From a virus (taxonomy: Duplodnaviria > Caudoviricetes), in IMG/VR virus record IMGVR_UViG_3300044260_000061, positions 1 to 50,270 of that record: 50,270 nt of DNA; one strand, written 5' to 3'. The notes under the pieces were generated by a model. It saw only the letters and a program-made list of their open reading frames with translations, ran no database searches and was not told the DNA's origin. Shown piece after piece: positions 4,077-46,800 of the stretch (its first letter is position 1; every line of letters starts with the position of its first letter). The translations under genes were made by a program, and so were the position numbers.

Positions 4077-6754
4077 GCGCGTCCGGACGCGACGGCCGCC
4101 GCGAGGTCGCGCGCCATCTCACGCTGCATCGTCTTGAGCGTGAAGGCGCGCTGCCGCAGAACCCCCTCGAAGGTCTGGAGGGGGTCGTCGTTGAACACGG
4201 GGGCGATGTTGAAGACGTCGCCCCCGCCGCCCGTGTAGCCTCCGGACTCCAGCGCGTCGAGCGGGATGATCGCCTCTGGGCCGTGGAGTATCGCGGCCGT
4301 GCCGGATCCGAAGTTCCCCCAGCCGCCGTCCGCGAAGCTCGGCGTGTTCTCCGGCAGGCTCGGCACGGTCGGAGTCGTGCTGGTGTTGGAGGCCCCACTC
4401 GGCGTGCCGGCGATCTGCTTGAGGACTCCGAGCTGCTCCTTCTGGACGTTCAGTGACTGGAGCGCCGGGTCGGCGAGGATCTCGATCCCGTTCGCCTTCG
4501 CCTCGTCGAGGAGCGCCTGCGTCTTCGCGTCCAGGGCATTTCCGCTCTGCATGGCGGCGTTGAGCTGCTCGCGCAGGATAGGCGCGATGGCGATGAGGCC
4601 GGCGCGGGTCGCCCCTTGGGGATCGAGGCCCTGGGCCGTGGCCGCGTCCTGGGCTTGCTTCCGGAGATCCTCGGCGGCTTGCGCGCCGACCGCCGAGACG
4701 CCCGCATCGATGACGCCGGCGGTCCGCATCCCGCCCAGCATCCCGGCGACGTCCTGCGCGGCGCCCTGCGCCCCCGTGAACTCCTTCGACCCCGTCAGGC
4801 GGGCGTCGATGGTGCCAATGCCGTACTTCATGAGGGCGCCGTTGACGGCGCCGAACAGCGCCTCGATCGCGGCGGACGACTTCACGGAACCGTCCGCGAT
4901 CTTGGCCTGGAGGCTCTCCGCGGACTGCGCGGCCCGCCCGAGGCCGGCCTCGAGGTCCTGCCGGCTCTTGATCTTCGCTTGGAGCGCCTCCTCCTCGGCC
5001 TTCCGCTTCGCCTCTTCGGCTGCCGCCTTCTCCGCCGCCTTCTGCTCCTTCGACTTCCCGCCGAACAGGCTCTTGATCCCCGAGAAGAGCGAGCCCGCGA
5101 CGCCGATGATCGACCCGACCATCCCAAGCCCGCCGGCGACCTTGCCGAGCACGCTCTTGAAGCCGCCGCCCTTGATGTCCTTCATGGCGTTGAACCCGCT
5201 GATGGCTCCGCCCAAGCCGGACGACAGTGACGCGGCGAAGCCCACGATGTCCCCGGTCAGGCCGCCCGTCGTCTGCGCCAGGCCCTGGAGCTGGTCCGCG
5301 AGAGTCCCGAGCGTCGACGTCCAGGTCTCCGTCTCCTTCGTCGCCTCCTTCGCCTTCTCTGCGGCATCCTTCCCCGCGTCTCCCCAGGTGATGAAGCCCT
5401 GAGCGTCGAGCCCGAAGTCGAAGTTCCGAGCACCGACCATCGCGCCCATACCGAGGTCGCGCCCCTGCGGCAGGAACCCGACGCCGTCGAGCGTCGTGGC
5501 CATGCCGCTGCCGGCCTTCTTCTTCGCCTCGTCGAGGATCTGGAACGCGAGCTTCCGCGCGCTCTTCGCGGCGTCGGCCAGGAGGCTGCTGATCTCCTCC
5601 TGCTCCTTGGCCGATTCCTTGGCCGCCTTCGCCGACGCCTTCCGGGCTTCCTCCTCCTCGGGGCCGAGCGTCAGCCCCGACTTGTCGAGGTAGGTCTCCG
5701 GGCTCGAGATCCGCGCGAGCTCCGCGAAGCCGCCGCTCAGACCGGCGATGCCGCCCTCGATCCCGGTCGTGCTGATGCGGACCGGCTTGCTCAGGTAGTT
5801 GAAGACGGGGACGATCGACGCAAGGGCCCGGTTCTTCCAGAGCTCCCAGTTTCTCCCGGCCTCGTCGAGGGCCTTGTCCGTCTCCGCCAGGGCCCGCACC
5901 TGCTCGGGGCCGAGCGTCTCGATCATCTTGTACGCACCGGACGCGACGTCGTCGAGGATCGGAATCAGGTCCGTCCCGGCCCGCCCGAGGCCGGCCTGGG
6001 CTGCCGCGGACTTGATCGCGGGGTCTTCGATGCCCGCCACCGCCTGAGCGAACGCCTGGAGACGCTGCTCCTGCGTCATGAGGTCCCAGCCGGTGATGTC
6101 GATCCCGAACTTTGCGATGTCCTTCCCCCCGGACGCGATCTCCGCGCTCAGGGCCTTCATGCCCTTCCGGAGCGCCTCGGGGGCGATCTGGGCCTCCGTC
6201 ATGACCTGGGAGAGCTGCTGGACGGTCTCCATCCCGAGGCCCGTCGACTTCGCCGTGTTCGACCACTCCTCCGCCTTGTCCGCGAGCTCGGCGACCGCGG
6301 TGTACGCCTTCGTCCCCGCGAAGGCCACGGCACCGAAGGCGCCAGCGGCCACGACGCCCGCGGGACCGAGCGCGGAGAGGGCCCCGGCCACCCCGCCGCC
6401 CGTCGTCAGCGACGCGAACGCCGCCCCGAACTTCGACCCGATCCCGGTCAGCCCCGAGAGGCTCGCTGGCACCTTCGCGCCCGCGGCGGCCAGTTGGTTG
6501 ACCTGCAGCGTGACCCGGCCGAGCTGGGCCCCCGTGAGATTCGCCGTGCCGCCCAGCCCGCGAACGGCGAGCTCCAGCGCCTTCATGTCCGCGGTGGGCC
6601 GCGCCGCCGTGACCTTGTCGAGTTGGCCCTGGACGGCCTTGAGCTCGACCCCCATGCGGCCCGCCGCCTGGGCCGCGTCCCTCAGGGACTTCTGGAGGAC
6701 ACCGCTCCCGCCCGTGAGTTCGACGCGCAGCGTACGCAGCGTGTCACCGGCCAT
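4073..6754 (-). CDS. tail tape measure protein (893 aa)
   Basis: N-terminus TLRTLRVELTG, long Ala/Gly-rich helical body, C-terminal SFADGG...ILHGPEAIIPL motif. Follows the tail chaperones. Confidence 0.92.
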   Translation of the reverse strand: MAGDTLRTLRVELTGGSGVLQKSLRDAAQAAGRMGVELKAVQGQLDKVTAARPTADMKALELAVRGLGGTANLTGAQLGRVTLQVNQLAAAGAKVPASLSGLTGIGSKFGAAFASLTTGGGVAGALSALGPAGVVAAGAFGAVAFAGTKAYTAVAELADKAEEWSNTAKSTGLGMETVQQLSQVMTEAQIAPEALRKGMKALSAEIASGGKDIAKFGIDITGWDLMTQEQRLQAFAQAVAGIEDPAIKSAAAQAGLGRAGTDLIPILDDVASGAYKMIETLGPEQVRALAETDKALDEAGRNWELWKNRALASIVPVFNYLSKPVRISTTGIEGGIAGLSGGFAELARISSPETYLDKSGLTLGPEEEEARKASAKAAKESAKEQEEISSLLADAAKSARKLAFQILDEAKKKAGSGMATTLDGVGFLPQGRDLGMGAMVGARNFDFGLDAQGFITWGDAGKDAAEKAKEATKETETWTSTLGTLADQLQGLAQTTGGLTGDIVGFAASLSSGLGGAISGFNAMKDIKGGGFKSVLGKVAGGLGMVGSIIGVAGSLFSGIKSLFGGKSKEQKAAEKAAAEEAKRKAEEEALQAKIKSRQDLEAGLGRAAQSAESLQAKIADGSVKSSAAIEALFGAVNGALMKYGIGTIDARLTGSKEFTGAQGAAQDVAGMLGGMRTAGVIDAGVSAVGAQAAEDLRKQAQDAATAQGLDPQGATRAGLIAIAPILREQLNAAMQSGNALDAKTQALLDEAKANGIEILADPALQSLNVQKEQLGVLKQIAGTPSGASNTSTTPTVPSLPENTPSFADGGWGNFGSGTAAILHGPEAIIPLDALESGGYTGGGGDVFNIAPVFNDDPLQTFEGVLRQRAFTLKTMQREMARDLAAAVASGRA

Positions 6755-17384: not shown

Positions 17385-18107
17385 TCATGCACTTACGCCG
17401 CCCCATCGTGGCAGCACGCGCCCCCTCCAGTTCGCGCGGCAGGGGTCGCCCAGGTGCAGGACGTAGAAGTCCAAGAGGCCGACCTTGTGCGCGAAGCTGC
17501 CGCGGAAGACCAGGTCGTACTTGCCCGCGGTCTTGAAGCTGCCGAGGGCTTGGCCCGGGTAGTAGCGGAAGAGCTGGAAGTAGCCGAGGCAGGCCTTGGC
17601 CGCCTTGCGGATGGTCGACTTGTTCGCGCCACGGACGATGGCGGGCGCATCCATGCCGCGATCACGGGGGAGCATCAACGGAAGCGCCCCCCGCTTCGTC
17701 TGGCCCCCGCGGTGCGCCTCGAGATCGGCCGCTGTCGCGCAGAGGTAGCGGGCGCAGCCGTAGATGGCGCCCGGCCTGAGCCTGTCGGCCGGGAGGTGGC
17801 CGAACGGGTAGACGTCGGCGTCGGCGACGAGGCAGCGTTCGCCCATGGCGGGCGGGCCGAGGTTGCCCCGGCTGGTGATGCCGAGCGCCTCGTCGAGGGC
17901 GGCGGCCTTGTCGAAGGCGTGCCCGTGCGCGTACCACGCCTCGGTGATGTGGAGGCGGGCGCCGAGACGGGCGGCGAGAGCCTGCGTGTCGCGGTCCTTG
18001 GGCGCGGTGACGACCGTGATGCTGGCGAAGGGGAACATGGCTTGCCAGGCGGGCAACGTGACCGCGAGGAAGTCGGCGTAGTCAACGGCCGGGACTACGA
18101 TGCGCAC
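17385..18107 (-). CDS. GT2-like glycosyltransferase (240 aa)
   Basis: N-terminal IVVPAVDYADFLAVTL, FDKAAALDEAL, LVADADV (DxD), GYFQLF and VLHLG motifs. Confidence 0.75.
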   Translation of the reverse strand: MRIVVPAVDYADFLAVTLPAWQAMFPFASITVVTAPKDRDTQALAARLGARLHITEAWYAHGHAFDKAAALDEALGITSRGNLGPPAMGERCLVADADVYPFGHLPADRLRPGAIYGCARYLCATAADLEAHRGGQTKRGALPLMLPRDRGMDAPAIVRGANKSTIRKAAKACLGYFQLFRYYPGQALGSFKTAGKYDLVFRGSFAHKVGLLDFYVLHLGDPCRANWRGRVLPRWGGVSA

Positions 18108-19441
18108 GCGAGCACCCTATTCTCGAGCAGCACCTCGTCGGGCCACATCTCCAGCACGCGGAAGTCCGGAAGCATCTCGAGGATCTCGCGGAGGGTGGCT
18201 TGCCCCTCGTAGAGCTCGTCGTCGGACCACTCGGTGTAGAGGTAACGGGTGCGCTCGAGGACGTCGTGCGCCCCGCGGATCATCTCGCGCTCCGCGCCCT
18301 GGATGTCAGCCCAGATGAGCGCGACGTCCCCGACTCCCTCGCGAGCGCAGAAGCTGTCGAGGGTCGTCGTGTGGACTTCGATCGTCTCCCCGAAGGTAAC
18401 GGGGTAGCGCCTGAAGTGGTTCTTGGGCAGCTTGAGCGAGGACGAATAGGTCCACTCGCGCCCCCATCCCCCCCGGCTCAAAACGAACGGTGCCACCCCA
18501 TCGCGGTCCGAAACGGCGAGCTCGTGGACGACGACGTTCGGCCTGGGCGGCTGGGTGTTGCGCGGATCGGGCTCGAAGGCGTGGACCGTGGCCCCCGGGA
18601 CCTGGGCGAGCCATGCTGTGTCGGTGCCCTGGTGCGCCCCGAGTTCGAGGAACACCTTGGCTTCCGGGCGGGCGAACGTGCGCTCGACCCACTCCCGGAT
18701 GGCGAACGGGTTGCGGCTCAGGCGCCGCCCTCGCGCCTCGATCCCGGCGCGCACGCCGCGCGACAGCGCCAGGCAGGAGTCGTAGTCGTCCCCTGCCCTG
18801 GAGATGCCGGCGACGCGCGAGAGCTCCTTGACGCAGCGGCTCCAGGTTGCCGTGGTCCAACGACGCGGATGCTTCGCGTGGAAGGCAACGGGGAAGTCCA
18901 CACAGCAGACCGGCAGGCCATGCGCAGCGAAGACGTGCGGGAGCCAGTAGTCCCAGGCCGGTTGCCCCATGCTGAGGAAGGACTCGGGGAAGAGCGCGCC
19001 GTCGCGGCCGTGGAGGAGGAAGGCGTCGATCCCGTAGTGCTCCCGCGCTGCGGGCGCGGCGGTGCCGTTGTGGTTGTGCCGGATGAAGTAGGCGAGCCCG
19101 CGGTCGGACAGCCAGCGCAGGCGCTGCATCTCCCACGGGGCGAGCCTCAGCTCGAGATCCGCGTTCACCAGGAGGACGGGCGCGTCCTGGTCGCGGGCCC
19201 AGTTCAACAGTGCGTTGATCGGCACGTAGTGGCGGCCGAAGGTCTTGATCGAGGTGTTCTTCACCGGGACGAAGTCCACGTCGTAGAGCTTGGCGAGGGC
19301 GGCGATCTCGGATGGATGGTTGAAGGACCTGACGGAGAGCCCCGCGGACGCCCAGGATCGCAGGGCCAGACGCTGGACCTCCACGCCTCCGTGGGGCGAC
19401 AGCGACGTCAGGGCGTAGATGGGGTCGGGGCTCGGCCTCAC
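18095..19441 (-). CDS. glycosyltransferase-like domain fused to FkbM-family methyltransferase (448 aa)
   Basis: N-half has LLVNADLEL, GIDAFLL and GQPAWDYWLP. C-half has FLELGAHQG (SAM motif), AFEPDP, TTLDSF, DIQGAE and YTE, typical of FkbM. Confidence 0.82.
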   Translation of the reverse strand: MRPSPDPIYALTSLSPHGGVEVQRLALRSWASAGLSVRSFNHPSEIAALAKLYDVDFVPVKNTSIKTFGRHYVPINALLNWARDQDAPVLLVNADLELRLAPWEMQRLRWLSDRGLAYFIRHNHNGTAAPAAREHYGIDAFLLHGRDGALFPESFLSMGQPAWDYWLPHVFAAHGLPVCCVDFPVAFHAKHPRRWTTATWSRCVKELSRVAGISRAGDDYDSCLALSRGVRAGIEARGRRLSRNPFAIREWVERTFARPEAKVFLELGAHQGTDTAWLAQVPGATVHAFEPDPRNTQPPRPNVVVHELAVSDRDGVAPFVLSRGGWGREWTYSSSLKLPKNHFRRYPVTFGETIEVHTTTLDSFCAREGVGDVALIWADIQGAEREMIRGAHDVLERTRYLYTEWSDDELYEGQATLREILEMLPDFRVLEMWPDEVLLENRVLACAS

Positions 19442-19553: not shown

Positions 19554-20384
19554 TCAGTAGAACGGGAACGCGCGGCCGCTGCCGGAGTTGTAGTAGAGCG
19601 CGACGTCGTTCGCGCTCAGACCACGGGACCAGATGGCGAGGCCGTCCATGACGGTGTTGAGGTACTCGCCGCTTCTTCCTCCGACCGTGAGGTCGGCCGA
19701 CGAAGAGCGCACGTTGTAGGTCAGGTCTCCGCAGGTGAAGGCGGCATTGTTGACGGAGATGCACGCCTGAGCCTTGCCGTAGGGGCCGTAAGGGCTCAAC
19801 TTCCAGACCACGAGGGCCCACTGGTCGAGGGGGATCGCGCTCGCGTAGGTGTAGCTTTGCCCGGTGTCCGTCTCGTCCTCCCAGGCGTCCAATTCCGGTT
19901 TCCCAGCGTTGAGCCGCAGGATGATTCCGGAGCTGTCGCTTGCTGTCCCCGATCCGTCCGTCGTGGCGAGGACGGTCTGCAGCCCTGACGCCGTGCTCTG
20001 GTAGAGCCAGACCGCGACTGTGAAGTACGACGTGAACATGTTCGAGCCGAAGCGCGGGATGCGGAACTGGCTCGACGTGGTGTTGAAGTTGCCGGCGCTG
20101 TAGGAGGATCCCGTCCAAGCCATGTGTGTGGCGTTGCGGTTCACGCCGGCGGCCCCCATCTCGTACAGCGGCGTGTTGGCGTAGGAGCCGAAGCGCGTCG
20201 AGTCGGTCGCCTCTTCGAAGTTCCACCACTCGACCAGGCCGCGGCACAGGACCGACTGCTGCGGGTCGCAGATGCCGACGGCGGCCTCCGCGGGGCGAGG
20301 GGCGAGGGGCGTGTGGGACGGGGCCAGCATGAGCGCGGCGACGATCCCCGCCGCGAGGAGTCCGACCCGGATTGCCTTCTTCAT
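19554..20384 (-). CDS. secreted LamG/concanavalin A-like lectin-domain protein (276 aa)
   Basis: Sec signal MKKAIRVGLLAAGIVAALML...AEA; LVEWWNFEE, FTVAVW, QWALVV, MDGLAIWSRGLS and LYYNSG LamG pattern. Confidence 0.8.
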   Translation of the reverse strand: MKKAIRVGLLAAGIVAALMLAPSHTPLAPRPAEAAVGICDPQQSVLCRGLVEWWNFEEATDSTRFGSYANTPLYEMGAAGVNRNATHMAWTGSSYSAGNFNTTSSQFRIPRFGSNMFTSYFTVAVWLYQSTASGLQTVLATTDGSGTASDSSGIILRLNAGKPELDAWEDETDTGQSYTYASAIPLDQWALVVWKLSPYGPYGKAQACISVNNAAFTCGDLTYNVRSSSADLTVGGRSGEYLNTVMDGLAIWSRGLSANDVALYYNSGSGRAFPFY

Positions 20385-20432
20385 GGTTTCTTTCCTCCCT
20401 TTCCTTCGTTTCGTGTGGAGTGGCCGCAGCGC

Positions 20433-21242
20433 CTACGGGTTGGCAGTGAACGGGTAGGCGCGGCCGGAGCCGGAGTTGCAGAGCCAGGAGACTTCCCCCG
20501 CGCTCAGGGTGCCGGAGAAGATGCTGAGCTGGTCGAACTTGTAGGCTGAGATCCTGTCCATGTTCCCGATCCGGAAGTCGCCCAGGAACACCTGCGGCGG
20601 GTAGGTGATCGTCTGCGTCGTCGCCGCCCCGCCGTTCACGCGGATCCACAGGGTCGACTGATAGGGCTCGGTGGTCGTCGGGCTCGCGTAGATCCCGAAC
20701 GAAACGAAGTACCACGTCGTCGCGCTGAGAGTCGTCGAGTCCTCGACGTAGCTCACAGTGTCGGTCATCGACTGCTTCACGGTGAAGCGGAAGTGGTGGA
20801 CCGAAGACGTGTTTGTGTCGGACAAGTAGGAACCGACCTTCGTCCCGCTGTCGTCATACGTCCCGATGAGAGTGCTCGTGGCCCCGAGCGAGTCGGCGTA
20901 CAACCAGACGTTGGCCGTGAACGACGTGCCAAGCGACGGCGACCGCGGGATGTAGAGGTACTCCGTCCCGGATCCGGTGTCGGGGGCAAGGGAATAGGAG
21001 CCGGTCTTGTGCGTCGACGAGCGGGCGAGGTCGTAGCCTCCCCGCTCGAGGAAGGGCGCCGTCCCCGTCTCGCTGGTCCGGTCGTAGTTCGCGGCCTCCT
21101 CGAACTCGTAGAGGGCGACGAGGGAGGCGCACATCTTCGCCTTGGCGGGGTCGCACAGGGTGTAGGTGCGGTCGGCGGCGCGGGCCGGGAGCGCGAGCGC
21201 CAGGAGCGCGGCGACCGCGTACAGCATGAGTCTCTTCTTCAT
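20433..21242 (-). CDS. secreted LamG-like protein, paralogue of the downstream gene (269 aa)
   Basis: ATG 21242 after AGGAGG; signal MKKRLMLYAVAALLALALPARA; LVALYEFEE, FTANVW, TWYFV, FDQLSIFSGTLS and NSGSGRAYPF. Confidence 0.8.
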   Translation of the reverse strand: MKKRLMLYAVAALLALALPARAADRTYTLCDPAKAKMCASLVALYEFEEAANYDRTSETGTAPFLERGGYDLARSSTHKTGSYSLAPDTGSGTEYLYIPRSPSLGTSFTANVWLYADSLGATSTLIGTYDDSGTKVGSYLSDTNTSSVHHFRFTVKQSMTDTVSYVEDSTTLSATTWYFVSFGIYASPTTTEPYQSTLWIRVNGGAATTQTITYPPQVFLGDFRIGNMDRISAYKFDQLSIFSGTLSAGEVSWLCNSGSGRAYPFTANP

Positions 21243-21308
21243 CGTCTTGTCCTCCTTGTGCGTGTCGGCCATCTCGATCCCCCTCCCCGGGGGTGGTAAA
21301 AAGATTCC

Positions 21309-33226: not shown

Positions 33227-33510
33227 GCGGCCTCCCCGCCGCCGTCAGGGGGGAGGCCGTCGAAGCACGCCTCTTCCTGCGCGGCCTCCTCGGCGCGGCG
33301 CCGGTCCTCGGCCTCGCGCTCCGCCTCTTCCAGCGACCGCTCCTCGGCCCGCTCGCGCTCCCGTCGCCCCTCGTCGTAGCCGACGGCCCAGGCGTCGTGC
33401 AGGGGCCGCTCGTTCTCGCGCAGCGTCGAGTGCGGGTTGTCGGTCGACCACCGGCTGCGCCGGCCCTCGTCGTGGGCTTCCTGCTCCTCGTGCGTCCAGT
33501 AGGTCGTCAT
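33223..33510 (-). CDS. hypothetical acidic protein (95 aa)
   Basis: ATGA coupling; NPH...AWAVGYDEG motif, then a charged helix. Confidence 0.6.
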   Translation of the reverse strand: MTTYWTHEEQEAHDEGRRSRWSTDNPHSTLRENERPLHDAWAVGYDEGRRERERAEERSLEEAEREAEDRRRAEEAAQEEACFDGLPPDGGGEAA

Positions 33511-35123
33511 GCCGCCCTCTCGGTCGAGACGCTCGGCGCGTTGCTGCGCACGAGGACCTCGGCCATCTCGGGGCAGACGCTGTTACCGATGAGGCGCACC
33601 TTTGCCGACTTCGTCCGCGCCGCGGAGAGGTCGTAGGCGGCCGAGAAGCGCCCGAACTGCGCGGCGAGCAGCTCGTGCGGCTCGAGCATGCGCATGCCGA
33701 TGTCGACGATCTGGTAGTCGGTGCCCTCGACGGTCACCAGGCCGAGCCGGTGCTTCGCGGTGAGCGTGCGCGCTGGCTCGTCGAGCCGCTGGCCCTTGCC
33801 TAGCGTGCCGTCGCTGCCATAGAAAGCGGTGAGGAAGGCGCGCACCTCGGCGATGTGGTTCGAATCGGCGGTGACAGTAGGCATCGGCGTCCCGATCGGG
33901 ACACCCGTGTCGTCGTGGTTGAACCGGATCAGAGTGGCGGCGGCGAGGCTGTGGTGATCCTTCGCGGTGACGGCGCCGACGGGGCGCTCGAGGTCGTGGC
34001 CTACTACGCCGCCGAAATGCTTCGCGAGGAACGCGGCGACGAGCGCGTGCTTCTGGCCGCCGGCGACGACGGTGCCGAGCGGCTGGTGGATGTCGAGGTA
34101 GCGCGGCCGTTGCCCTTCGCGCTCGCCCCAGCTCGTCTGGATGAGGGTCGGAGCGACGAGGGCATGGCCACGCTGCGTCGCGGTCACTGTGGAGAGAGGC
34201 TCCTCGGCGGCCTCGCCGCGAGGTTCCCACCTCCCGTGGTTCACCTTGACAATGCTGGGCGCCACCAAGCCGACGCGGTTCGACGTGTCCTGCGTCGTCA
34301 AGGGCTCGTCGATGCCCTGGCCGCGCCAGAGCCCTCCGTTGTAGCGGACGATGAACGGCCGCGGGTTCTCGAGGACGAACCGCCGGATGCCCTGCGCGAT
34401 GCGCCACAGCGTCTTCTCGGCGAGCGGCTTCTTCCGCTCGAAGATCGAGGGGCACGGCAGCGACCAGTCGATGCACTCCGCGGCGGTGCGCGCCGTGAGC
34501 AGGCCCGGGCCCTTGCCGTGCGTCGGCAACGGCCAGCGGACCGGCTGCCCATCGCATCGCGCCACGATGAAGAGCCGCTTCCGGCGCGTCGGCGCGCCGT
34601 AGGCGGAGGCGTCAAGCACGCGGTGGTCGACCACGTAGCCGAGGCGCTCGAGCTTGCGGCGCCACCGGATGAACGTCTGACCCATGCGCCGCTTGTCGGG
34701 CCTGCCGTCGGCGCCGAGCGGGCCCCAGCCGCGGAACTCCGCGACGTTCTCGAGGAAGATCACAGACGGTCGTACGGCGGCGGCCCAGCGCACGACGGCC
34801 CACGCGAGCGAGCGGATGTTCTGCTTCTTCGGGACGTCGCCCTTCGCAATGCTGAAGTGCGTACAGTCGGGGGAGGCCCAGAGCAGCGCCACGGGGCGGC
34901 CCTCCGTGGCCTCCGTCGGGCGCACTTCCCAGATATCGGCGTCGAGGTGCCGCGTCCGCGGGTGGTTCGCCTTGTGGACCGCGAGCGCGACCGCGTCGTG
35001 GTTGATCGCCACGTCGACGGGCCGCCCGAGGGCTGCCTCGATCCCTGCGCTTGCCCCGCCGCCGCCCGCGAAAAGGTCGACGATCAGGCCATCGCGCCCG
35101 CAGTCTCGGATTCTGTCCATCAC
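33507..35123 (-). CDS. DNA (cytosine-5)-methyltransferase (538 aa)
   Basis: DLFAGGGGAS (motif I), WASPDCTHFS (catalytic Cys), ENV, R.RLF and IGNSV. Repeated PL.TVT target-recognition segments; no cognate restriction enzyme seen. Confidence 0.93.
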   Translation of the reverse strand: MMDRIRDCGRDGLIVDLFAGGGGASAGIEAALGRPVDVAINHDAVALAVHKANHPRTRHLDADIWEVRPTEATEGRPVALLWASPDCTHFSIAKGDVPKKQNIRSLAWAVVRWAAAVRPSVIFLENVAEFRGWGPLGADGRPDKRRMGQTFIRWRRKLERLGYVVDHRVLDASAYGAPTRRKRLFIVARCDGQPVRWPLPTHGKGPGLLTARTAAECIDWSLPCPSIFERKKPLAEKTLWRIAQGIRRFVLENPRPFIVRYNGGLWRGQGIDEPLTTQDTSNRVGLVAPSIVKVNHGRWEPRGEAAEEPLSTVTATQRGHALVAPTLIQTSWGEREGQRPRYLDIHQPLGTVVAGGQKHALVAAFLAKHFGGVVGHDLERPVGAVTAKDHHSLAAATLIRFNHDDTGVPIGTPMPTVTADSNHIAEVRAFLTAFYGSDGTLGKGQRLDEPARTLTAKHRLGLVTVEGTDYQIVDIGMRMLEPHELLAAQFGRFSAAYDLSAARTKSAKVRLIGNSVCPEMAEVLVRSNAPSVSTERAA

Positions 35124-40598: not shown

Positions 40599-40916
40599 TC
40601 AACCTCCCTGGGTGAGGCGGCGTTCGTACGTCTGCAGCGCCGAGCGCCGCACGTACCAGCCGCCGTTCTTCATCGCCGCGATGCGGCCGCGCGCGCACTC
40701 GTTCCGAATGTGGCTCTCGCTGCAACGCAGCTCGGCCGCGGCCTCGGCGGCGGAGAGGAGCGGGTCCTCCTGCGCCTCCTGGTCCGCGATGTCGGCCAGG
40801 TGGAGCGCGAGGACACCGAGCTCGTCGAGGGCCCTCGCGACCTTGCGGAGCGCGAGGGCGACGCTCGGGCGGTCCTCATCGGGAGGAGGCGCGAGGCGGA
40901 GCGGGGTCGCGGTCAC
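40599..40916 (-). CDS. excisionase-like HTH_17 protein (105 aa)
   Basis: LLSAAEAAAELRCSESHIRNECARGRIAAMKNGGWYV, a MerR-like wHTH. Confidence 0.7.
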   Translation of the reverse strand: MTATPLRLAPPPDEDRPSVALALRKVARALDELGVLALHLADIADQEAQEDPLLSAAEAAAELRCSESHIRNECARGRIAAMKNGGWYVRRSALQTYERRLTQGG

Positions 40917-41635
40917 TGGAGCACCAGATCGGTAGACGGCCCACGGAGCGGTCGCGCGCAATACCGCGAGTCCAGCCACGTCAGCCCGAGCGGCGTCACA
41001 AGGGCCTGTGTCGTCACGTCCTCGTCGTGGTCGCCGATGACGACAGCGCGGACACGAAAGCGGCCCTCCGTGACGTGCTTCGCGTAGGGCTCCAGCCGCC
41101 CGCGGGCGTCACGGAAGAGGATCGCGTCGGAGAGCAGCCTGGAGACGAATTCCTTCTCGGGGATCCGGAGTGCCTTCGCCGCCTTGCGCAGGGAGAGGTC
41201 CCCGCCGGCCGCGGCGAGACGATCGAAGGCCTGGACCTTCGGGAGCAGCTCGGCATGCTCAGCCCGAAGCCGCTGGTTCTCAGCGTGCGCCAGGATGACG
41301 GCGCGGGCCATCACGGCGCTTGGGCTATTCCATAGCTCCTCGATCCTGATGAGCGCCTGGCGTGCCTCGAGCGCCTGCGGGCCGCGCGTCGAGATCGCAA
41401 TGAGCTTCGCGGTCGGCAGGCTCAGCGCGTACTCGGTAGCTGGCCGGCCGCCCTGGGGGTTTTCGCCGGAACCGGCGAAAACCTCGAAGTCGCGCCCCTG
41501 CACCAGTTCGAAGCGGGCGATCTGGTCCTTGACCCAGTTCGTGAAGTCGCGTCCGACGCCGAGCGCCGCGTGGAGTTGCCGCGCGTCAATGCCCTGCCTG
41601 GCTTCGTCGGTGGTGACGGCGAGCGCGTCGATCAT
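40913..41635 (-). CDS. antirepressor (AntA/AntB N-domain plus KilAC/ANT C-domain, 240 aa)
   Basis: IDARQLHAALGVGRDFTNWVK...GGRPATEYALSL; PKVQAFD...AAKAL...VTPLGLTWL. Confidence 0.9.
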   Translation of the reverse strand: MIDALAVTTDEARQGIDARQLHAALGVGRDFTNWVKDQIARFELVQGRDFEVFAGSGENPQGGRPATEYALSLPTAKLIAISTRGPQALEARQALIRIEELWNSPSAVMARAVILAHAENQRLRAEHAELLPKVQAFDRLAAAGGDLSLRKAAKALRIPEKEFVSRLLSDAILFRDARGRLEPYAKHVTEGRFRVRAVVIGDHDEDVTTQALVTPLGLTWLDSRYCARPLRGPSTDLVLQ

Positions 41636-42204
41636 CTCGTCGCCTCCGCTGCCATCGCCGCGCCTTCGAAGGCCGCCGCTGCGCCTCGGAGCTCGCCCGC
41701 GCGCGCCCGGAGGGACGCGGCTTCCGAGGGGTCCACGACCCCGTCGGCGACGGCGCGCGTCACGTCCCCGAGCGCCTCCGTCGCGATCTGGGCGGCCATG
41801 ATCGCCGTCTCAACAACCGACCCCGGCGCCGTGGCCACCGGCAGCAGGCCCTGCCCCACCGCGCGCGCCAGGAGCGTCAGGGCCGCGACGGTCGCCGCCC
41901 GCGCCTCCCGGGTCGGGTCCGTCGCCAGCCGGCAGATGTCGCCGAGCGGCATCGAGCGTTCGCCGCGCAGGGCCTCGCGGAAGTGCTCGGGACAGTGGGT
42001 CCCGGAAAGCATGGAGGCGACGCCCCGCAGCTCAGCCTGGAGCGCGTCGAGGACGCAGGCCTCGAGGTCGACCGCACGGGGGAACCGGGCGTCGAGCCGC
42101 TGTGCCCGGAGGGCCACCTGGTCGCGGATCCGGTCCGCGGTCGTCGGGTGCGGATCTGGTTCCGGGACGCAGGAGAGCCGTAGATTCGTGGCCATGAGGC
42201 TCAC
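41632..42204 (-). CDS. CII-like phage regulatory protein
   Basis: Directly after cro; C-terminal ALGDVTRAVADGVVDPSE motif of the CII family. Confidence 0.6.
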   Translation of the reverse strand: MSLMATNLRLSCVPEPDPHPTTADRIRDQVALRAQRLDARFPRAVDLEACVLDALQAELRGVASMLSGTHCPEHFREALRGERSMPLGDICRLATDPTREARAATVAALTLLARAVGQGLLPVATAPGSVVETAIMAAQIATEALGDVTRAVADGVVDPSEAASLRARAGELRGAAAAFEGAAMAAEATR

Positions 42205-42443
42205 TCAGCGGCGGGATCGGACGAGGAGCCCACCAGGTCATCGGCGGAAAGGCCGGGCACGTACCGCCGGAGGACAGCCAGCGCCCGAAACAGCTCGTCA
42301 GAGGGCGGAGAGAACTCCGTCTTCCAGCGAGTCACCGTCTCGGGAGCAACCCCCATTTCGGTGGCTATGTCCTTCTGTGTCAGGTCGTTGGCTGAGCAGA
42401 TCCGTTCAAGAACGACCCCGAATCCGGTAATTGAGCGTGCCAT
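42201..42443 (-). CDS. Cro-like XRE regulator (80 aa)
   Basis: LTQKDIATEMGVAPETVTRWK HTH; divergent from the repressor; apparently leaderless. Confidence 0.85.
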   Translation of the reverse strand: MARSITGFGVVLERICSANDLTQKDIATEMGVAPETVTRWKTEFSPPSDELFRALAVLRRYVPGLSADDLVGSSSDPAAE

Positions 42444-42481
42444 CAAGATTGAAGATAGGTACGCTTGATCGTAAAGTCAAG
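42431..42481. promoter_or_regulatory. two operator-like inverted repeats TTGA-N8-TCAA
   Basis: TTGAGCGTGCCATCAA (42431-42446) and CTTGATCGTAAAGTCAAG (42464-42481) overlap the cro start and the -35 box. Confidence 0.7.
42452..42480 (-). promoter_or_regulatory. sigma70-type lytic promoter for cro
   Basis: TTGACT-17 nt-TATCTT, ending 8 nt before the cro ATG. Confidence 0.75.
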
Positions 42482-42512
42482 TACTTTCTCGCGGACGGTG
42501 TACCGTTCGGCG

Positions 42513-42854
42513 GTGGCTGGGAAACCGCGGGCGATGGCCGTCCTGTCGAAGCGGGTGAAGATGCTGCCGCGGGGGACTCAGAAGGTGGTCGCCGAGTTGG
42601 CTGGCCTCAGCGCGGAGACCATCACCCGGTGGAAGGGCGGTCACGGGAATCCGAGGCTCGGCGACCTGGAGGCCTTCGCCGACGTGCTCGGAGTTTCGGT
42701 GGCCTACCTGGTCGACGCGGCGCGTGTGGAGGCGCCGAAGATCCCGCCTACGAGCGCCGACGGGAGGCGCCTCGAGAGGCTCGTCCGCGACGGCGAGCGA
42801 ATCGAGGCGGAACTGCCGAAGGCGTTGGACGCGGTCCGAGGTCGGACGCGATGA
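42513..42854 (+). CDS. CI-like XRE repressor lacking a peptidase domain
   Basis: TQKVVAELAGLSAETITRWKGGHGNPRLGDLEAFADVLGVSVAYL. Start GTG 42513 or ATG 42534. Confidence 0.85.
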   Translation: MAGKPRAMAVLSKRVKMLPRGTQKVVAELAGLSAETITRWKGGHGNPRLGDLEAFADVLGVSVAYLVDAARVEAPKIPPTSADGRRLERLVRDGERIEAELPKALDAVRGRTR

Positions 42855-43094
42855 AGCGGAGGGCGCGCTCGACGGTGCCGACGAGATCGGCGAGGCGGAC
42901 GACATGCGAGCGGCTCACGATGACCCGTCCCGGCTCCCTCTCCATGCCCCACTCCTTGCCCCAGGCGCGCATCTTCGCCGACCACGGTGCAGCGGGAGGT
43001 CCCATCGGTGGCTGGAGACGAAACGGAACTTCGTCGCGTGATGGTCGACCGAGTTGACGGATGCCCTACGCTACAGGTCGTGTGAGGTGAGCGC

Positions 43095-43763
43095 ATGGCC
43101 ACCAAGCCCTGCCCCTTCTGTGCGGAGCAGATTCAGGACGCGGCCGTCTTCTGCCGACACTGCCACCATGACCTGAAGACCGGCAGCATCGAAGGACCGG
43201 CGGCAGACGGGCCGCGGCGGTACTGGAGTCCGGGCATCGCGGGGCTCCTGTCGTTCCTGATGCCCGGCGCCGGGTCGATGTACAAGGGCGACGTCGCCCT
43301 CGGGATCCTGCTATTCGTGCTGACCGTCGGCGGGTACTTCCTCTTCTTCGTGCCCGGCCTTGTCCTGCACCTGGTCGCCATCGTCGTGGCCACCTCCGGC
43401 GATCCGACCCGTGATCCGGCCGGTCGGCCCGGTCCAACCGTCGCAGCCCTCGCTGCCGAGCAGCGGCGCGCGATCCCTGCCACGCCCGGGCAACTGGCCA
43501 GCGCCAGGAAGAGGGCACGGATCGGCTGGGCTGTGGCCGGCGTCGCGCTCGTCGCGCTCGCGGCCCTCCTGCTCGCGGCCGCGCGGATCGGCGCACCGAC
43601 TCCGACGGGCATCTCCGGGAGGGATCTGGATCTCGCCGACAACCTGCGGTCGATCGCCGCCGCCACGCTCGTGGTGATGCTCATCGCCGGCGGCTATGGC
43701 GTGGAGATGACCACGAGGGTCGCCGATCTCAATCGACGGCTCCGCGCGTCCAAGGGACGGTAG
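43095..43763 (+). CDS. zinc-ribbon plus TM2-like membrane protein (222 aa), candidate superinfection exclusion
   Basis: KPCPFCAEQI...FCRHC, SPGIAGLLSFLMPGAGSMYKG and several TM helices; between repressor and integrase. Confidence 0.7.
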   Translation: MATKPCPFCAEQIQDAAVFCRHCHHDLKTGSIEGPAADGPRRYWSPGIAGLLSFLMPGAGSMYKGDVALGILLFVLTVGGYFLFFVPGLVLHLVAIVVATSGDPTRDPAGRPGPTVAALAAEQRRAIPATPGQLASARKRARIGWAVAGVALVALAALLLAAARIGAPTPTGISGRDLDLADNLRSIAAATLVVMLIAGGYGVEMTTRVADLNRRLRASKGR

Positions 43764-43768
43764 CCGCG

Positions 43769-44833
43769 GTGCGCGGTGACGGCTCCCTCATCCTCCGCGG
43801 CCGCGTCTGGTACGCCCGGATCTACGAGCGCGGCCGAGAGATCCGGGAGTCCCTCCGGACCACGGACCCCGACCTGGCCGAGCGGCGCTTCGTCGCCCTC
43901 CGGAAGAAGCGCGAGCGCGGGACCTACCTCGACCCCTCCCAGCGGCGGATTCGCGTGGACGAGCTGCTCGACGACCTGGTGCTCCACCTCGAGGTCCGCG
44001 GCGCCGCCAGTCTCCCGAAGGTCCGCTCGCATCTCAAGGCCGTCCGCAGCGAGGTCGGCCGCCGCCCCGCGCACGCGCTCGACACGGCGACCCTCGAGCG
44101 GATGCAACGTGCCTGGCTCCGAGCCGGCGCCGCGCCGGCGACCGTCAACCGTCGCTGCGAGCTCCTACGCCAGGCCCTGCGCCTCGCGGCCAGGCGCCGG
44201 CCGCCGAAGGTGGTGGATGCGCCCCACGTCCCCCTCCTGAGCGTTCAGAACGCGCGCCAGGGCTTCCTGGGTCAGGGCGACGTCGCGCGCCTCCTGGCGG
44301 GGCTGGTGGACGTCGACGTGCGGGATTTCGTGGAGTGGGCCGCGTGGACCGGGATGCGGCCGGGCGAGATCCGGCAACTCACCTGGGAGATGGTCGACCT
44401 GCAGGCCGCCACCCTCACCGTCGCGCCGCAGGTCGCGAAGACGCGGCGCGGCCGCGTGCTCGCCCTCGTGGGCCCCCTCCTCGCGATCGTCCAGCGGCGC
44501 CTCGCGCGCCGGCGCCTCGGCTGCGCCCTGGTGTTCCACCGCGCCTCGAAGGGCCGGCTGGGCGCCCCCGTGCTCGACTACCGCCGCGCCTGGCGCGTCG
44601 CGCTGAAGGCGGCGAAGCTGCCCCTCACCCTCCGACCCTACGACCTGCGAAGGAGCGCGCTCCGCAACCTGATCCGGTCCGGGACGCACGAAACCGTGGC
44701 CATGGCCATCTCGGGGCACCGCACCAGGAGCACCTTCGACCGCTACAACATCACCTCGACCGACGACGTCGCGGCCGCGATCGAGCGCGTTGCCAGCGAG
44801 GACTGGACCTCTCACGGCACCAAGGCGCGCTAA
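43769..44833 (+). CDS. int: tyrosine integrase (354 aa)
   Basis: Arm-binding N-terminus; catalytic R (TGMRPGEI), K (AKTRR), YDLRRS, SGHRT and Y (FDRYNI). Confidence 0.95.
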   Translation: MRGDGSLILRGRVWYARIYERGREIRESLRTTDPDLAERRFVALRKKRERGTYLDPSQRRIRVDELLDDLVLHLEVRGAASLPKVRSHLKAVRSEVGRRPAHALDTATLERMQRAWLRAGAAPATVNRRCELLRQALRLAARRRPPKVVDAPHVPLLSVQNARQGFLGQGDVARLLAGLVDVDVRDFVEWAAWTGMRPGEIRQLTWEMVDLQAATLTVAPQVAKTRRGRVLALVGPLLAIVQRRLARRRLGCALVFHRASKGRLGAPVLDYRRAWRVALKAAKLPLTLRPYDLRRSALRNLIRSGTHETVAMAISGHRTRSTFDRYNITSTDDVAAAIERVASEDWTSHGTKAR

Positions 44834-44843
44834 GGTCCGCCCG

Positions 44844-45359
44844 ATGAGAGGCGATGGTTCAGTCATTCGCCGCGGCCGCGTTTGGTACACGCGGATCTAC
44901 GTCGGGGGTAAAGAGATCCGCACGAGCACGGGGGCGACAAATCGGGACGACGCGATCGCGCAGCTCAAAGCGGCGCGGGAGGCTTCGCGAGACTCAGGCC
45001 CTCGAGGCCGGGCCCTGAATGCGGGGCTGCGCAAGATCCACACCGGCACGTTGAGTGGCGCCGACGTGTGCGCCTTGCGTCGGCCACTCGTCTACGCCTG
45101 GTTCCGTGGGGAGGAAGTGCTCTATGTGGGTAAGGGCGCCATGGGAATGTACCGTCCTCTTCACCCCAAGCACCACCGCCTCCACGACATTGCACCCGAC
45201 GATGAACTGCGGTTCTGGGCTTGCGCCAACGCCGCAGAAGCCGAGGCATTCGAAAGCCAACTCATCAAGCGGTGGCGACCTCGGCTGAACCGCCGCCACA
45301 TTCGCACCGCTCACGAGCGTGATCAGGCAAGAATGGCGACTGTAAGTAACTCATTATAA
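44844..45359 (+). CDS. integrase arm-binding-like domain fused to GIY-YIG nuclease domain (171 aa)
   Basis: First 28 aa are 21/28 identical to the integrase N-terminus (hand count). C-half has VYAWFRGEEVLYVGKG...R...AEAFESQLIKRWRPRLN. Confidence 0.75.
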   Translation: MRGDGSVIRRGRVWYTRIYVGGKEIRTSTGATNRDDAIAQLKAAREASRDSGPRGRALNAGLRKIHTGTLSGADVCALRRPLVYAWFRGEEVLYVGKGAMGMYRPLHPKHHRLHDIAPDDELRFWACANAAEAEAFESQLIKRWRPRLNRRHIRTAHERDQARMATVSNSL

Positions 45360-45367
45360 ATACGTTA

Positions 45368-45392
45368 TGGCGGAAGCGGGTGGGAATCGAAC
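45368..45392 (-). other. attP core = 3' end of tRNA-Sec (selC)
   Basis: Minus strand GTTCGATT-CCCAC-CCGCTTCC-G-CCA: T-loop, 5-nt T stem strand, 8-nt acceptor strand, G discriminator, CCA. No 5' tRNA half; an AT-rich tract and IHF-like ATCAACGACTTG lie nearby. Confidence 0.82.
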
Positions 45393-45458
45393 GATCTGAC
45401 GGGGTGGCGGCGACGCCGTGCGGGTGGCGCCCTTGCGCGGCATCAACGACTTGCGGGG

Positions 45459-45478
45459 GCTCTTCGAAAGTCGAGAGC
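45459..45478. terminator. hairpin between the convergent int and tail operons
   Basis: GCTC(T)TCGA-AAG-TCGAGAGC stem; no U-tract. Confidence 0.3.
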
Positions 45479-45531
45479 GGCCTCCGCTAGGCGGCACCCC
45501 TGACAAACGCCGGATCACCTGATCGGCCTTC

Positions 45532-46800
45532 TCAGGGCGACGCGAACGGGCTCTCGGTGAACGGGAGCGCGAAGCTCCGCAGCGATCCCCCGTCCACCGG
45601 GCTCACGAGGCTGTACGTCACCTTGTCGGCGATCCGCCCGTGGTAGACCCGGCCCGTGCCCTCGAACGCGGGGCCCGGCAGCAGCAGCAGCGGGTCGGCC
45701 CCGAACCGGGTCAGGCGCGCGATCTCGCCCCGGATCTGCCGGTAGTGGGCGTCGTTCCTCGTCTTGAACTCCAGGTCGAGCTCGGCCGCCGGCCATGCCT
45801 CATCCGGGATGACCTCCTTCCGCTTCCGGGCGGCCTCGAGGACGAGCTGGCCCGGCGCCGACTCCGTCAGCCCGATGGGGAGCACGGGGCTCCCGGCGAG
45901 GAGCGTGCGAGCCGTCCCGAGCCAGACCTCGCCGAGGACCGGCGGAGGCAGGAGGGCCGACGGCATGGCGATCGACAGCCGCCAGACCTGGGCGAGGACG
46001 GGGGACGTGGCCACCGCGTACATCGACGGCTGCGCCGGCGTGAGGGCGATAGCGGTCCCGGACGGCTGCGGCTGCAGCTCCACCGTCGCGCCGGCCGGGA
46101 GGTTGTGCCCCACGATGGCAGCCAGGTCGACCTCCGCGAAGAGGGCGGGGGCCGAGACGTAGACGTAGGTGGTCGCGCCGTAGGATGCGGCGACCGGCTC
46201 GAGGATGACCCGGTACGTCGTGCGTTCAGTGCGCGCCGTGTCCGCGGCGATCGTCTCCGCGACGTCGAGCCAGGAGTCGTCGGAGGCCTGCTCGCCGGCG
46301 ACGCCGTCGTCCGTCCAGTCGTCCGTCGAGCTCGCCTCCCAGGCCTTCCCCGTCGAGAGGTCGACCACCCGCACGCGGACGCCCGTTGCCGTCGAGGCCC
46401 CGGGGAGCTGCAGCCCGGTGTCGAGCTTCACGGCCTCGCCCGGCATGACCTCGACGTCCTGGGCGATCGGGCGGAAGAGCCGGAGCGCCGAGCGGCCCGC
46501 GTACGTGCCCCAGTCCGGGGGGGCAGCAGGGAGGCCCGGGGAGCCGGCCAGGTAGTTGAGGAGGTCGAACCACCCCGTCGGCGCGTCCGTGCGCTCGCTC
46601 GAGGCCGCGAGCAGGTTCAGGTCGAGGTCCGCCTCGTAGTCGCCCTCGGCGCGCCACTGGAAGGCCCCTCGCTGGTCGGGATAGCCGCTGCCGAGGTTCG
46701 CCAGCGGGAGGAGCGTGTCCTCCACGGCCGGCGAGACGGCGACCGGAGACACGGGCGCGCGGCTCAGGAGGTTGCCGATGCCGTACTTCCAGGCTGCCAT
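45532..46800 (-). CDS. virion structural / distal-tail-like protein (422 aa)
   Basis: Last gene of the tail operon; beta-rich, GEVWLG motif, C-terminal LPFTE. Confidence 0.6.
   Translation of the reverse strand: MAAWKYGIGNLLSRAPVSPVAVSPAVEDTLLPLANLGSGYPDQRGAFQWRAEGDYEADLDLNLLAASSERTDAPTGWFDLLNYLAGSPGLPAAPPDWGTYAGRSALRLFRPIAQDVEVMPGEAVKLDTGLQLPGASTATGVRVRVVDLSTGKAWEASSTDDWTDDGVAGEQASDDSWLDVAETIAADTARTERTTYRVILEPVAASYGATTYVYVSAPALFAEVDLAAIVGHNLPAGATVELQPQPSGTAIALTPAQPSMYAVATSPVLAQVWRLSIAMPSALLPPPVLGEVWLGTARTLLAGSPVLPIGLTESAPGQLVLEAARKRKEVIPDEAWPAAELDLEFKTRNDAHYRQIRGEIARLTRFGADPLLLLPGPAFEGTGRVYHGRIADKVTYSLVSPVDGGSLRSFALPFTESPFASP

Follow-up and report, generated by a model that had tools for sequence, protein, structure and literature searches.

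What could an integrase's arm-binding domain be doing outside the integrase, joined to a nuclease and encoded next to a phage attachment site? This question is raised by a locus in the virus record IMGVR_UViG_3300044260_000061, a stretch of 50,270 bases (referred to below as the window) that is rated 91% complete, has a G+C content of approximately 70% and carries, by PHROGs annotation, the genes of a lambda-like temperate siphovirus. Between the gene of its tyrosine integrase (Int) and the core of its attachment (att) site lies an open reading frame (ORF), ORF2, the product of which is predicted to be a modular GIY-YIG nuclease with an integrase-type aiming domain. The comparisons presented here indicate that ORF2 belongs to a recurring two-domain, integrase-linked family that was previously undescribed, its architecture and family being far more certain than its function. 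An initial annotation of the locus, made from the sequence alone, had placed ORF2 10 nucleotides (nt) after int and 8 nt before the att core. These coordinates were confirmed (Table 1), and the start residues of ORF2 agree with those of other family members.

A GIY-YIG nuclease domain

The C-terminal part of ORF2 had been described as switching to a GIY-YIG domain, and this description holds: its motifs coincide with positions that are invariant in the family, and the fold was recovered by structure prediction. In an alignment of 33 sequences, comprising ORF2 and 32 relatives that could be aligned with it along most of the protein, Y84, Y94, G96, R104, H110, E137, P146 and N149 are invariant in all 33, as is A37 in the N-terminal domain (N-domain). 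Y84 and Y94 (with G96) align with the corresponding motifs of UvrC and have the tyrosine spacing of the GIY ... YIG pair, while the arginine after the second motif (R104), the metal-binding glutamate (E137) and the asparagine at the end of the domain (N149) are all present and invariant. The roles of the individual catalytic residues are presumably those assigned in work on I-TevI and UvrC. None of the 33 sequences departs from the catalytic Tyr, Tyr, Arg, His, Glu and Asn, so that selection appears to act on the chemistry and not on DNA binding alone.

An AlphaFold2 model of ORF2 based on the family alignment has a mean predicted local distance difference test score (pLDDT) of 90. Motif for motif, the family profile agrees with the GIY-YIG domain of UvrC, the structure of which has been solved (E 1.6e-10), and the top 9 Foldseek matches of the nuclease domain are all UvrC GIY-YIG domains, with TM-scores by target of 0.58-0.64. 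In VIA comparisons, residues 79-152 aligned best with UvrC (1ycz; Z 8.5, root-mean-square deviation (rmsd) 2.1, 74 residues), the other matches being a GIY-YIG restriction enzyme (9u75, Z 6.4), I-TevI (Z 6.0, 15% identity) and T4 EndoII (Z 5.9). Curated models are far less sensitive to this domain. Pfam PF01541 did not match ORF2 at E ≤ 1 and matched 1/33 members only (E 0.011). No significant annotation of ORF2 was obtained from Pfam, PHROGs or NCBIfam, the best match being the UvrC model (E 0.0065), and a Pfam scan detected no T5orf172 domain in ORF2 or in the 33 members. The curated GIY-YIG model misses this divergent, sizeable branch, which seems to be confined to uncultured phages.

A predicted arm-type domain resembling that of the neighbouring integrase

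The initial annotation had also reported that the first 28 residues of ORF2 are for the most part those of Int, with many synonymous changes between the two genes. A recount gave the same figure: 21/28 residues are identical, of which 10 have the same codon in both genes, 10 differ by synonymous changes and one is the start codon. Over the first 70 residues, 32/70 are identical (E 4e-12; BLASTP, single comparison). The plan of an arm-type domain, a three-stranded sheet and a helix, is found in residues 1-51 of the AlphaFold2 model, in which this block has pLDDT values of 78-97, and the family profile also matches the N-termini of 7 further Ints, with E values from 2.8e-6 to 4.9e-13. Curated arm models gave sparse matches among the 33 members: DUF6538 matched 5/33 (best E 0.00021) and Arm-DNA-bind_4 matched 1/33. 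The family member at locus L002, a phage with a related Int, matched Arm-DNA-bind_4 with E 0.0014 and 18.6 bits, the cut-off being 22.3. In VIA comparisons, the N-domain of ORF2 aligned with the arm-type domain of the HPI integrase (3jtz; Z 4.7, rmsd 1.9, 47 aligned residues, 28% identity), with lambda Int (1z1b, Z 4.4; 2wcc, Z 4.0) and with AP2/GCC-box domains (Z 4.7). Many unrelated small folds also score Z 4-5, so that a fold search alone cannot settle what this domain is. Its predicted arm-type identity rests on the homology with Int, the profile matches to 7 other Ints and the sub-threshold matches to DUF6538 and Arm-DNA-bind_4.

The likeness between ORF2 and Int appears to be specific to the strands. 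Five sister Ints, which are 58-66% identical to the window Int overall, share only 13-17/28 residues with it in the strand region, fewer than ORF2 does. In the helix and linker the order is reversed: ORF2 is identical to its own Int at 8/31 positions, and the sister Ints at 14-21/31. In lambda Int, these strands read DNA. The simplest reading is that ORF2 and its own Int have a common DNA specificity. The end of the helical linker that connects the two domains of ORF2 is conserved in its own right, L70, G72, V75, L78 and R79 being invariant in the 8 closest members.

A recurring two-domain family

An exhaustive HMMER search of 1.84 billion cluster representatives yielded 552 relatives at E ≤ 1e-3 and 107 at E ≤ 1e-10. 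Among the 150 best representatives, the nuclease domain is present in all 150 and is preceded by an arm-type domain in 40 (ORF2 included). The search for further proteins of the same architecture, which had been proposed when the locus was annotated, was thus successful. Because the arm-type label was judged by a profile built from 33 of these 40 members, only 7/40 are independent of that profile. In 108/150 representatives the nuclease domain is combined with other N- or C-terminal extensions and has no arm-type domain. When mapped on a tree of 158 nuclease domains, the label of an arm-type domain requires 22 changes, compared with 31-43 when labels are shuffled. It is therefore clustered, yet with many apparent swaps; as the tree was made with FastTree from ~85 columns, the count is indicative only.

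Less sensitive searches and searches of other collections added little. A word-indexed protein search with ORF2 returned only the protein of the window itself. The same kind of search with residues 1-60 among longer proteins gave no match at E ≤ 10 and missed even the Int of the window, so that it is uninformative on subtype matching. No match was found in 50,697 GenBank phage records, either with blastn of positions 43000-46000 or with tblastn of ORF2, and none with tblastn of ORF2 in 72,556 plasmids. When 121 genomes of the candidate host phylum, that with the closest tRNA-Sec gene, were searched with a profile, no two-domain member was detected; the sole match was to the N-terminus of a frame of 370 amino acids, a putative integrase. 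Viral scans with two other subsets of the family yielded no loci. The genome scan (35 loci) returned distant matches throughout, and the metagenome scan (40 loci) mostly distant ones, in long open frames of ~430-1,090 codons. These distant matches were taken to be putative UvrC-type genes and were left out of the context tally given below. Matches in the ESM Atlas and BFVD served as leads only.

Linkage to integrase genes

The genetic context was tallied for 14 loci of the close subfamily (the window, L002, L003/L004, L040-L046, L047/L048, L057, L080 and L088), near-identical contigs being counted once. An integrase gene is adjacent in 9/14 of these non-redundant loci, in keeping with the suggestion that homologues of ORF2 would be linked to integrases. 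In L003, L048, L057, L080 and L088 the neighbour was confirmed as a PF00589 protein, and in L045 only the N-terminus of Int is in view. Of the remaining 5/14 loci, four (L041-L044) are on contigs of < 1.9 kb with little flanking sequence, and the fifth, L046, has a degraded nuclease copy and no visible integrase gene on its contig of 6 kb. The further idea that the nuclease gene always lies between int and att did not survive. The gene lies 3' of int in the window, L002, L080 and L088, 5' of it in L003/L004, L045, L047/L048 and L057, and convergent with it in L040.

In addition to linkage, the initial annotation had proposed to test whether the N-domain tracks the cognate Int. This was addressed with the four loci that have both arm-type domains, by scoring each nuclease N-domain against 11 Int N-termini. 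The best partner of the window N-domain is its own Int (score 128, next 94). The same was observed for L088 (108, next 53), in which nuclease and Int have an unusual insertion in common. The N-domain of L047 scored 257 with its own Int, 272 with that of its near relative L045 and 51 with the next, and the L047 pair has a long cysteine-bearing insertion in common. Thus, in 3/4 testable pairs, across three domain subtypes, the nuclease has the same N-domain subtype as the neighbouring Int. Matching fails in L002, the nuclease of which has an arm-type domain of another kind (Arm-DNA-bind_4) that scored ≤ 41 with all 11 Ints, and it cannot apply to L080, where Int is Xer-like, has no arm domain and begins directly with a SAM-like domain. 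Together with L003/L004 and L041-L043, in which the nuclease has no arm-type domain, these counter-cases mean that matching of the neighbouring Int is not a rule of the family.

Several loci show other arrangements around these genes. In L080 (1-1857) and L003 (5890-7529), nucleases of the subfamily are located directly beside Xer-like integrases, which have a SAM-like N-terminal part and lack an arm domain. Linkage to integrase genes is thus not confined to shared arm domains. In L047, an HTH_17 excisionase-type gene (43-432, plus strand; E 1.9e-8) directly precedes the nuclease and int genes, so that the three genes are ordered xis, nuclease, int. Tandem integrase-like frames are present in L087 (2450-4682; Int profile E 1.8e-46 and 3.4e-126).

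Composition, age and probable mobility of the gene

The AT-richer codons that had been noticed in ORF2 are evident from its G+C content at third codon positions (GC3), which is 0.70 (0.74 in the N part and 0.69 in the C part), compared with 0.94 for int. The three matched nuclease-Int pairs have nucleotide identities of 51-61%, that of the window pair being 53%. Among identical residues, synonymous differences and identical codons number 19 and 12, 12 and 11, and 27 and 22 in the three pairs, and synonymous sites between N-domain and Int look saturated. As synonymous differences outnumber identical codons in every pair, the likeness is an old one that has been held at the protein level and not the product of recent gene conversion. 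Recent duplication in place was ruled out on the same grounds, together with the nucleotide identity of 53%. The foreign GC3 of the whole gene and the apparently saturated synonymous sites imply that ORF2 either came in as a unit or is old. The view that an integrase arm domain had been duplicated and fused to a nuclease thus stands as far as the two-domain likeness is concerned, but a local copying event is not supported.

The distribution of the gene among related phages is patchy. A scan with an Int alignment gave 9 viral loci, one of which was L002 again. The four closest sister phages by Int are 62-66% identical in this protein, and L081, L083 and L084 have no nuclease gene. The distance from the int stop codon to the tRNA-Sec core is ~30 nt in L083 and L084 and ~296 nt in L081. 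In L082 the core block was not found, making this locus uninformative on presence or absence. L002, with an Int 59% identical to that of the window, has a different family member in the same slot between int and att. Its start overlaps the int stop codon, its end lies 24 nt before the core, and it is 46% identical to ORF2 in the C-domain while the N-domains are unrelated. Presence and absence at one site are thus both observed, the nuclease gene being present in the window and L002 and missing from L081, L083 and L084.

Decaying copies were also encountered. Two separate metagenome contigs (L047, 492-1044; L048, 335-887) have one frameshift in common, in the central part of the GIY-YIG domain, and the related copy in L045 is intact across the corresponding point. 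The L047/L048 nuclease gene appears to be a genuine case of inactivation. Free-standing homing endonuclease genes are typically marked by uneven occurrence at a given site, unusual composition and copies in decay, and the ORF2 gene is probably mobile.

The attachment core and candidate arm sites

Read on the minus strand, positions 45368-45392 correspond to a tRNA 3' end, the acceptor stem being 8 bp long. The identity ends at the T-loop, and neither ARAGORN nor Rfam called a whole tRNA in the window. This block is therefore the att core of the phage and not a gene. Compared with the last 25 nt of tRNA-SeC genes called by ARAGORN, it has 3 mismatches in two genomes and 1 in a third. These matches bear out the earlier proposal that the att core corresponds to the end of a tRNA-Sec (selC) gene. 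The same core block is located 3' of int or of the nuclease gene in L002, L081, L083 and L084. The gene with 1 mismatch lies on contig C7 of genome G049 (locus L092, 1501-1597) and is the sole such match in 301 sampled genomes of the phylum of G001, a Gemmatimonadetes metagenome-assembled genome. The tRNA-SeC match in this phylum is no more than a hint to the host group.

Candidate arm-type sites were observed on both sides of the core (Table 1). The motif of the downstream pair, which was chosen after inspection of the region, has 12 matches in the window, 3 of them within 45377-45429. Two repeats, D4 and I8, pair the copies at 45268-45299 with 45404-45433; they are short and may have arisen by chance. 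In the sister phages without a nuclease gene, clear arm-type repeats of ~12-24 nt are found on both flanks of the tRNA-Sec core (L081, ~4780-5010; L083, ~4535-4762; L084, ~4570-4791). The sequence of these repeats differs from phage to phage, and the left copies in L083 and L084 fall inside the 3' end of int.

Organization of the window

The features of the locus are listed in Table 1. The terminase, portal, protease, major head and tail genes of the phage are located on the minus strand, and PHROGs annotation also identified RecE/RecT-like genes, an anti-repressor gene and a divergent pair of helix-turn-helix regulator genes at 42201-42854. From 45532 on, tail-fibre-side genes are encoded on the strand opposite to that of int and ORF2. 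A scan of the window for promoters and terminators gave nothing useful.

Table 1 Coordinates of the int-ORF2-att locus and of associated features in the window
Feature	Position	Strand	Basis and remarks
Excisionase-type (HTH_17) gene, separate; candidate directionality factor	40599..40979	-	Pfam PF12728, E 3.5e-10, 40.4 bits (cut-off 27)
Tyrosine integrase (Int)	43769..44833	+	354 amino acids, GTG start; Pfam PF00589, E 7.3e-17, 62.1 bits (cut-off 27.1); phrog_1 integrase, E 1.3e-42
Int N-terminal arm-type domain and start of linker (residues 1-59)	43769..43945	+	DUF6538, E 0.0024, below cut-off; aligns with N-terminus of ORF2 and with sister Ints
Spacer from int stop to ORF2 start, 10 nt	44834..44843	+	Read from the sequence
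ORF2, predicted two-domain nuclease	44844..45359	+	171 amino acids, ATG start, stop codon included; ORF list and sequence
ORF2 N-domain (residues 1-51), predicted integrase arm-type fold	44844..44996	+	Strands 6-10, 13-20 and 23-28; helix 34-51 (predicted)
ORF2 helical linker (residues 53-78), end conserved in the family	45000..45077	+	Helices 53-65 and 72-78 (AlphaFold2 model)
ORF2 GIY-YIG nuclease domain (residues 79-152), predicted	45078..45299	+	Family profile, Foldseek, VIA and invariant residues
Candidate arm-type sites within the 3' end of ORF2: a direct copy and an inverted one	45268..45299		Repeats D4 and I8
att core, 25-nt copy of the tRNA-Sec 3' end (T-loop to CCA)	45368..45392	-	Matches tRNA-SeC 3' ends in G001, G003 and G049
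Candidate arm-type sites: motif of 9-10 nt, present twice in direct orientation at a distance of 20 nt	45400..45429	+	Motif chosen after inspection of the region

Some genes outside the locus deserve mention. Directly 5' of int (43095-43763, plus strand), a protein of 222 amino acids is encoded with an N-terminal zinc ribbon and DUF6677-like membrane segments (Pfam, sub-threshold); it occupies the spot where lysogeny-expressed 'moron' genes often lie. Two ORFs of ~275 amino acids at 19554-21272 (minus strand) are located in the stretch of the window with the lowest G+C content (0.65-0.66). Their first-position G+C content is unusually low (0.50-0.55), and they have no PHROG match; this is possibly another acquired block. 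Two genes resemble DNA methyltransferase genes (18095-19441, minus strand, phrog_8156, E 3e-17; 33507-35123, minus strand, phrog_116, E 4e-90). Genes of this kind are used by phages against restriction.

Relation to known systems

The closest working analogue of ORF2 is the nuclease Odn of phage ICP1. Odn has acquired a DNA-binding domain highly similar to the origin-binding proteins of its target, PLE, and with it a ready-made specificity; it binds and cleaves the origins concerned (Barth, Nguyen & Seed 2021, PMC8263062). Both proteins are phage nucleases of the wider GIY-YIG kind with a borrowed site-specific binding domain, and both point to domain shuffling. The binding domain of Odn copies that of the replication initiator of an enemy, whereas that of ORF2 resembles the integrase arm domain of its own genome; the nuclease domain of Odn is of the T5orf172 type, while that of ORF2 is closest to UvrC; and the activity of Odn has been demonstrated experimentally, whereas that of ORF2 is predicted from comparisons. 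The passages on T5orf172 nucleases in another report state that these combine with many DNA-binding domains (PMC10448857).

The free-standing GIY-YIG homing endonucleases I-TevI and T4 Seg are likewise small modular proteins in which a GIY-YIG domain and a separate DNA-binding domain are joined by a linker. Classical GIY-YIG homing enzymes begin with the nuclease domain and end with the DNA-binding part, a zinc finger, NUMOD or helix-turn-helix module. ORF2 differs from I-TevI and Seg in that the order of the domains is reversed and the binding part is an arm-type domain as in integrases. As a gene it resembles those of homing endonucleases in its intergenic slot, patchy occurrence among relatives, odd composition and degraded copies. 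The HNH-AP2 homing endonucleases (Magnani et al. 2004, cited in PMC10448857) have an aiming domain of three strands and a helix, of the AP2/integrase fold class. They differ from ORF2 in having an HNH domain instead of GIY-YIG and a C-terminal AP2 domain, and the passages on them in PMC10448857 mention no link to integrase genes or att sites.

The arm-binding domains of lambda-class Ints, such as lambda Int and the HPI integrase (3jtz), have the same plan of secondary structure as the N-domain, and ORF2 is significantly similar to the N-terminus of the Int encoded next to it. It differs from these Ints in that the arm domain is detached from the recombinase body and joined to a nuclease. A literature search for GIY-YIG domains combined with integrase arm-binding, AP2-integrase or Arm-DNA-bind domains, covering the main texts of papers, found no description of such a fusion, and the main text of a survey of the GIY-YIG superfamily (2006, PMC1564403) has no mention of integrase or AP2. 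The impression that an att-arm-guided nuclease had not been published therefore agrees with the outcome of this search.

Possible functions of ORF2

The reading favoured here, tentatively and at slightly less than an even chance, is that ORF2 is a mobile nuclease, of the homing type or directed against rivals, that is aimed at the arm sites of Int. ORF2 would then be an active GIY-YIG endonuclease, the arm-type N-domain of which reads the same att arm sites as its own Int, and its gene would be a mobile accessory cassette, inserted between the int stop codon and the tRNA-Sec core and co-transcribed with int. Once bound to an arm site, the nuclease would nick or cut nearby DNA of elements that have those sites and lack the cassette, such as sister phages, satellites or islands equipped with the same integration module. 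The outcome could be either the exclusion of a rival for the tRNA-Sec site or the repair-mediated copying of the cassette and the int-att module into it (homing). The attP of the phage itself would be spared if insertion of the cassette alters the spacing or sequence between binding site and cut site. We infer arm-site binding, cleavage, target and self-sparing from sequence and structure comparisons.

A number of points weigh against this reading. A nuclease that reads the arm sites of its own genome would be a hazard to the phage, and the proposed self-sparing is conjecture; binding and cleavage by ORF2 are predictions, and the arm sites in the window are only weak candidates. The position of the nuclease gene relative to int varies. 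The arm-type domain of the L002 nuclease is unlike that of its own Int, L080 has an Int without an arm domain even though its nuclease has one, and the nucleases of L003/L004 and L041-L043 do not have this domain at all. In addition, the window was compared with a small set of six related Ints, and no pair of near-identical genomes differing by the cassette alone was found.

An alternative is that ORF2 is an ordinary free-standing homing endonuclease with a target other than arm sites, for instance the int gene or the int-att spacer of relatives without the cassette. The N-domain would in that case be one of several interchangeable DNA-binding modules, the likeness of which to Int reflects old ancestry and no common specificity. 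Although unlikely, this explanation agrees with the other extensions that accompany the nuclease domain in 108/150 best representatives, with the many apparent swaps of the arm label on the nuclease tree (22 changes, shuffled 31-43) and with the N-domain of L002. HNH nucleases joined to AP2 domains are, moreover, a known class of homing endonucleases in the passages of PMC10448857 on this subject. It does not predict that the strands of ORF2 are closer to its own Int than those of the sister Ints are, or that three N-domain subtypes each co-occur with the matching Int subtype; neither is expected from common ancestry alone.

A role as accessory factor in integration or excision of the phage itself appears rather improbable. 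ORF2 might be recruited to arm sites to nick att or resolve stalled Holliday junctions, or might compete with Int as a brake or directionality switch. Its probable co-transcription with int across the 10-nt gap and its position next to the att core fit such a role, as does the tight linkage of the family to integrase genes even where the arm domain is missing (L003/L004), and the GIY-YIG fold includes structure-specific nucleases such as Slx1. However, L081, L083 and L084, with Ints 62-66% identical to that of the window and the same core, do without the gene, so that it is dispensable for this type of Int; foreign codon usage and degraded copies also fit a dispensable mobile gene. The separate HTH_17 excisionase-type gene makes a directionality factor less likely and, together with the sister phages, argues against an essential recombination factor. 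A brake would need no invariant catalytic set, and a mere competitor for arm sites is unlikely because this set is invariant. Most improbable of all is a functionless, decaying remnant in which the 5' end of a displaced integrase gene was accidentally fused to a nuclease fragment. Debris does collect at prophage ends, the composition of ORF2 is unusual and the word-indexed search returned no protein other than that of the window. Yet the frame is intact, the catalytic residues are all present in a model with a pLDDT of 90, 40/150 best representatives have the same build, with eight invariant GIY-YIG positions of which six form the catalytic set, and the likeness to the Int protein has been kept despite apparently saturated synonymous sites. 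Pure debris was rejected, the family evidence coming close to a refutation, and the view in the initial annotation that the gene reflects selection and not decay is upheld on the same evidence.

Implications for integration modules

To our knowledge, arm-type binding domains have so far been treated as parts of integrases only. A detached arm domain joined to an intact nuclease, and kept like that of the adjacent Int in three lineages, leads to the testable idea that att sites are read beyond the recombination machinery. It is possible, if somewhat doubtful, that a nuclease family adopted the arm-binding domain of tyrosine integrases and has maintained its match with the adjacent integrase. 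Integration modules would in that event carry an att-reading weapon, which would cut rivals with the same arm sites and tRNA site or would spread the int-att module into such rivals. Cleavage at arm sites by the nuclease, if it occurs, would help to explain the competition of phages and islands for popular tRNA attachment sites. It would also bear on the reasons for which integration modules pass from phage to phage as whole units, and it would provide natural nucleases with a specificity that can be predicted from a partner protein. If such att-reading weapons exist, they would add a new layer to the conflict between mobile elements, one that is fought at attachment sites.

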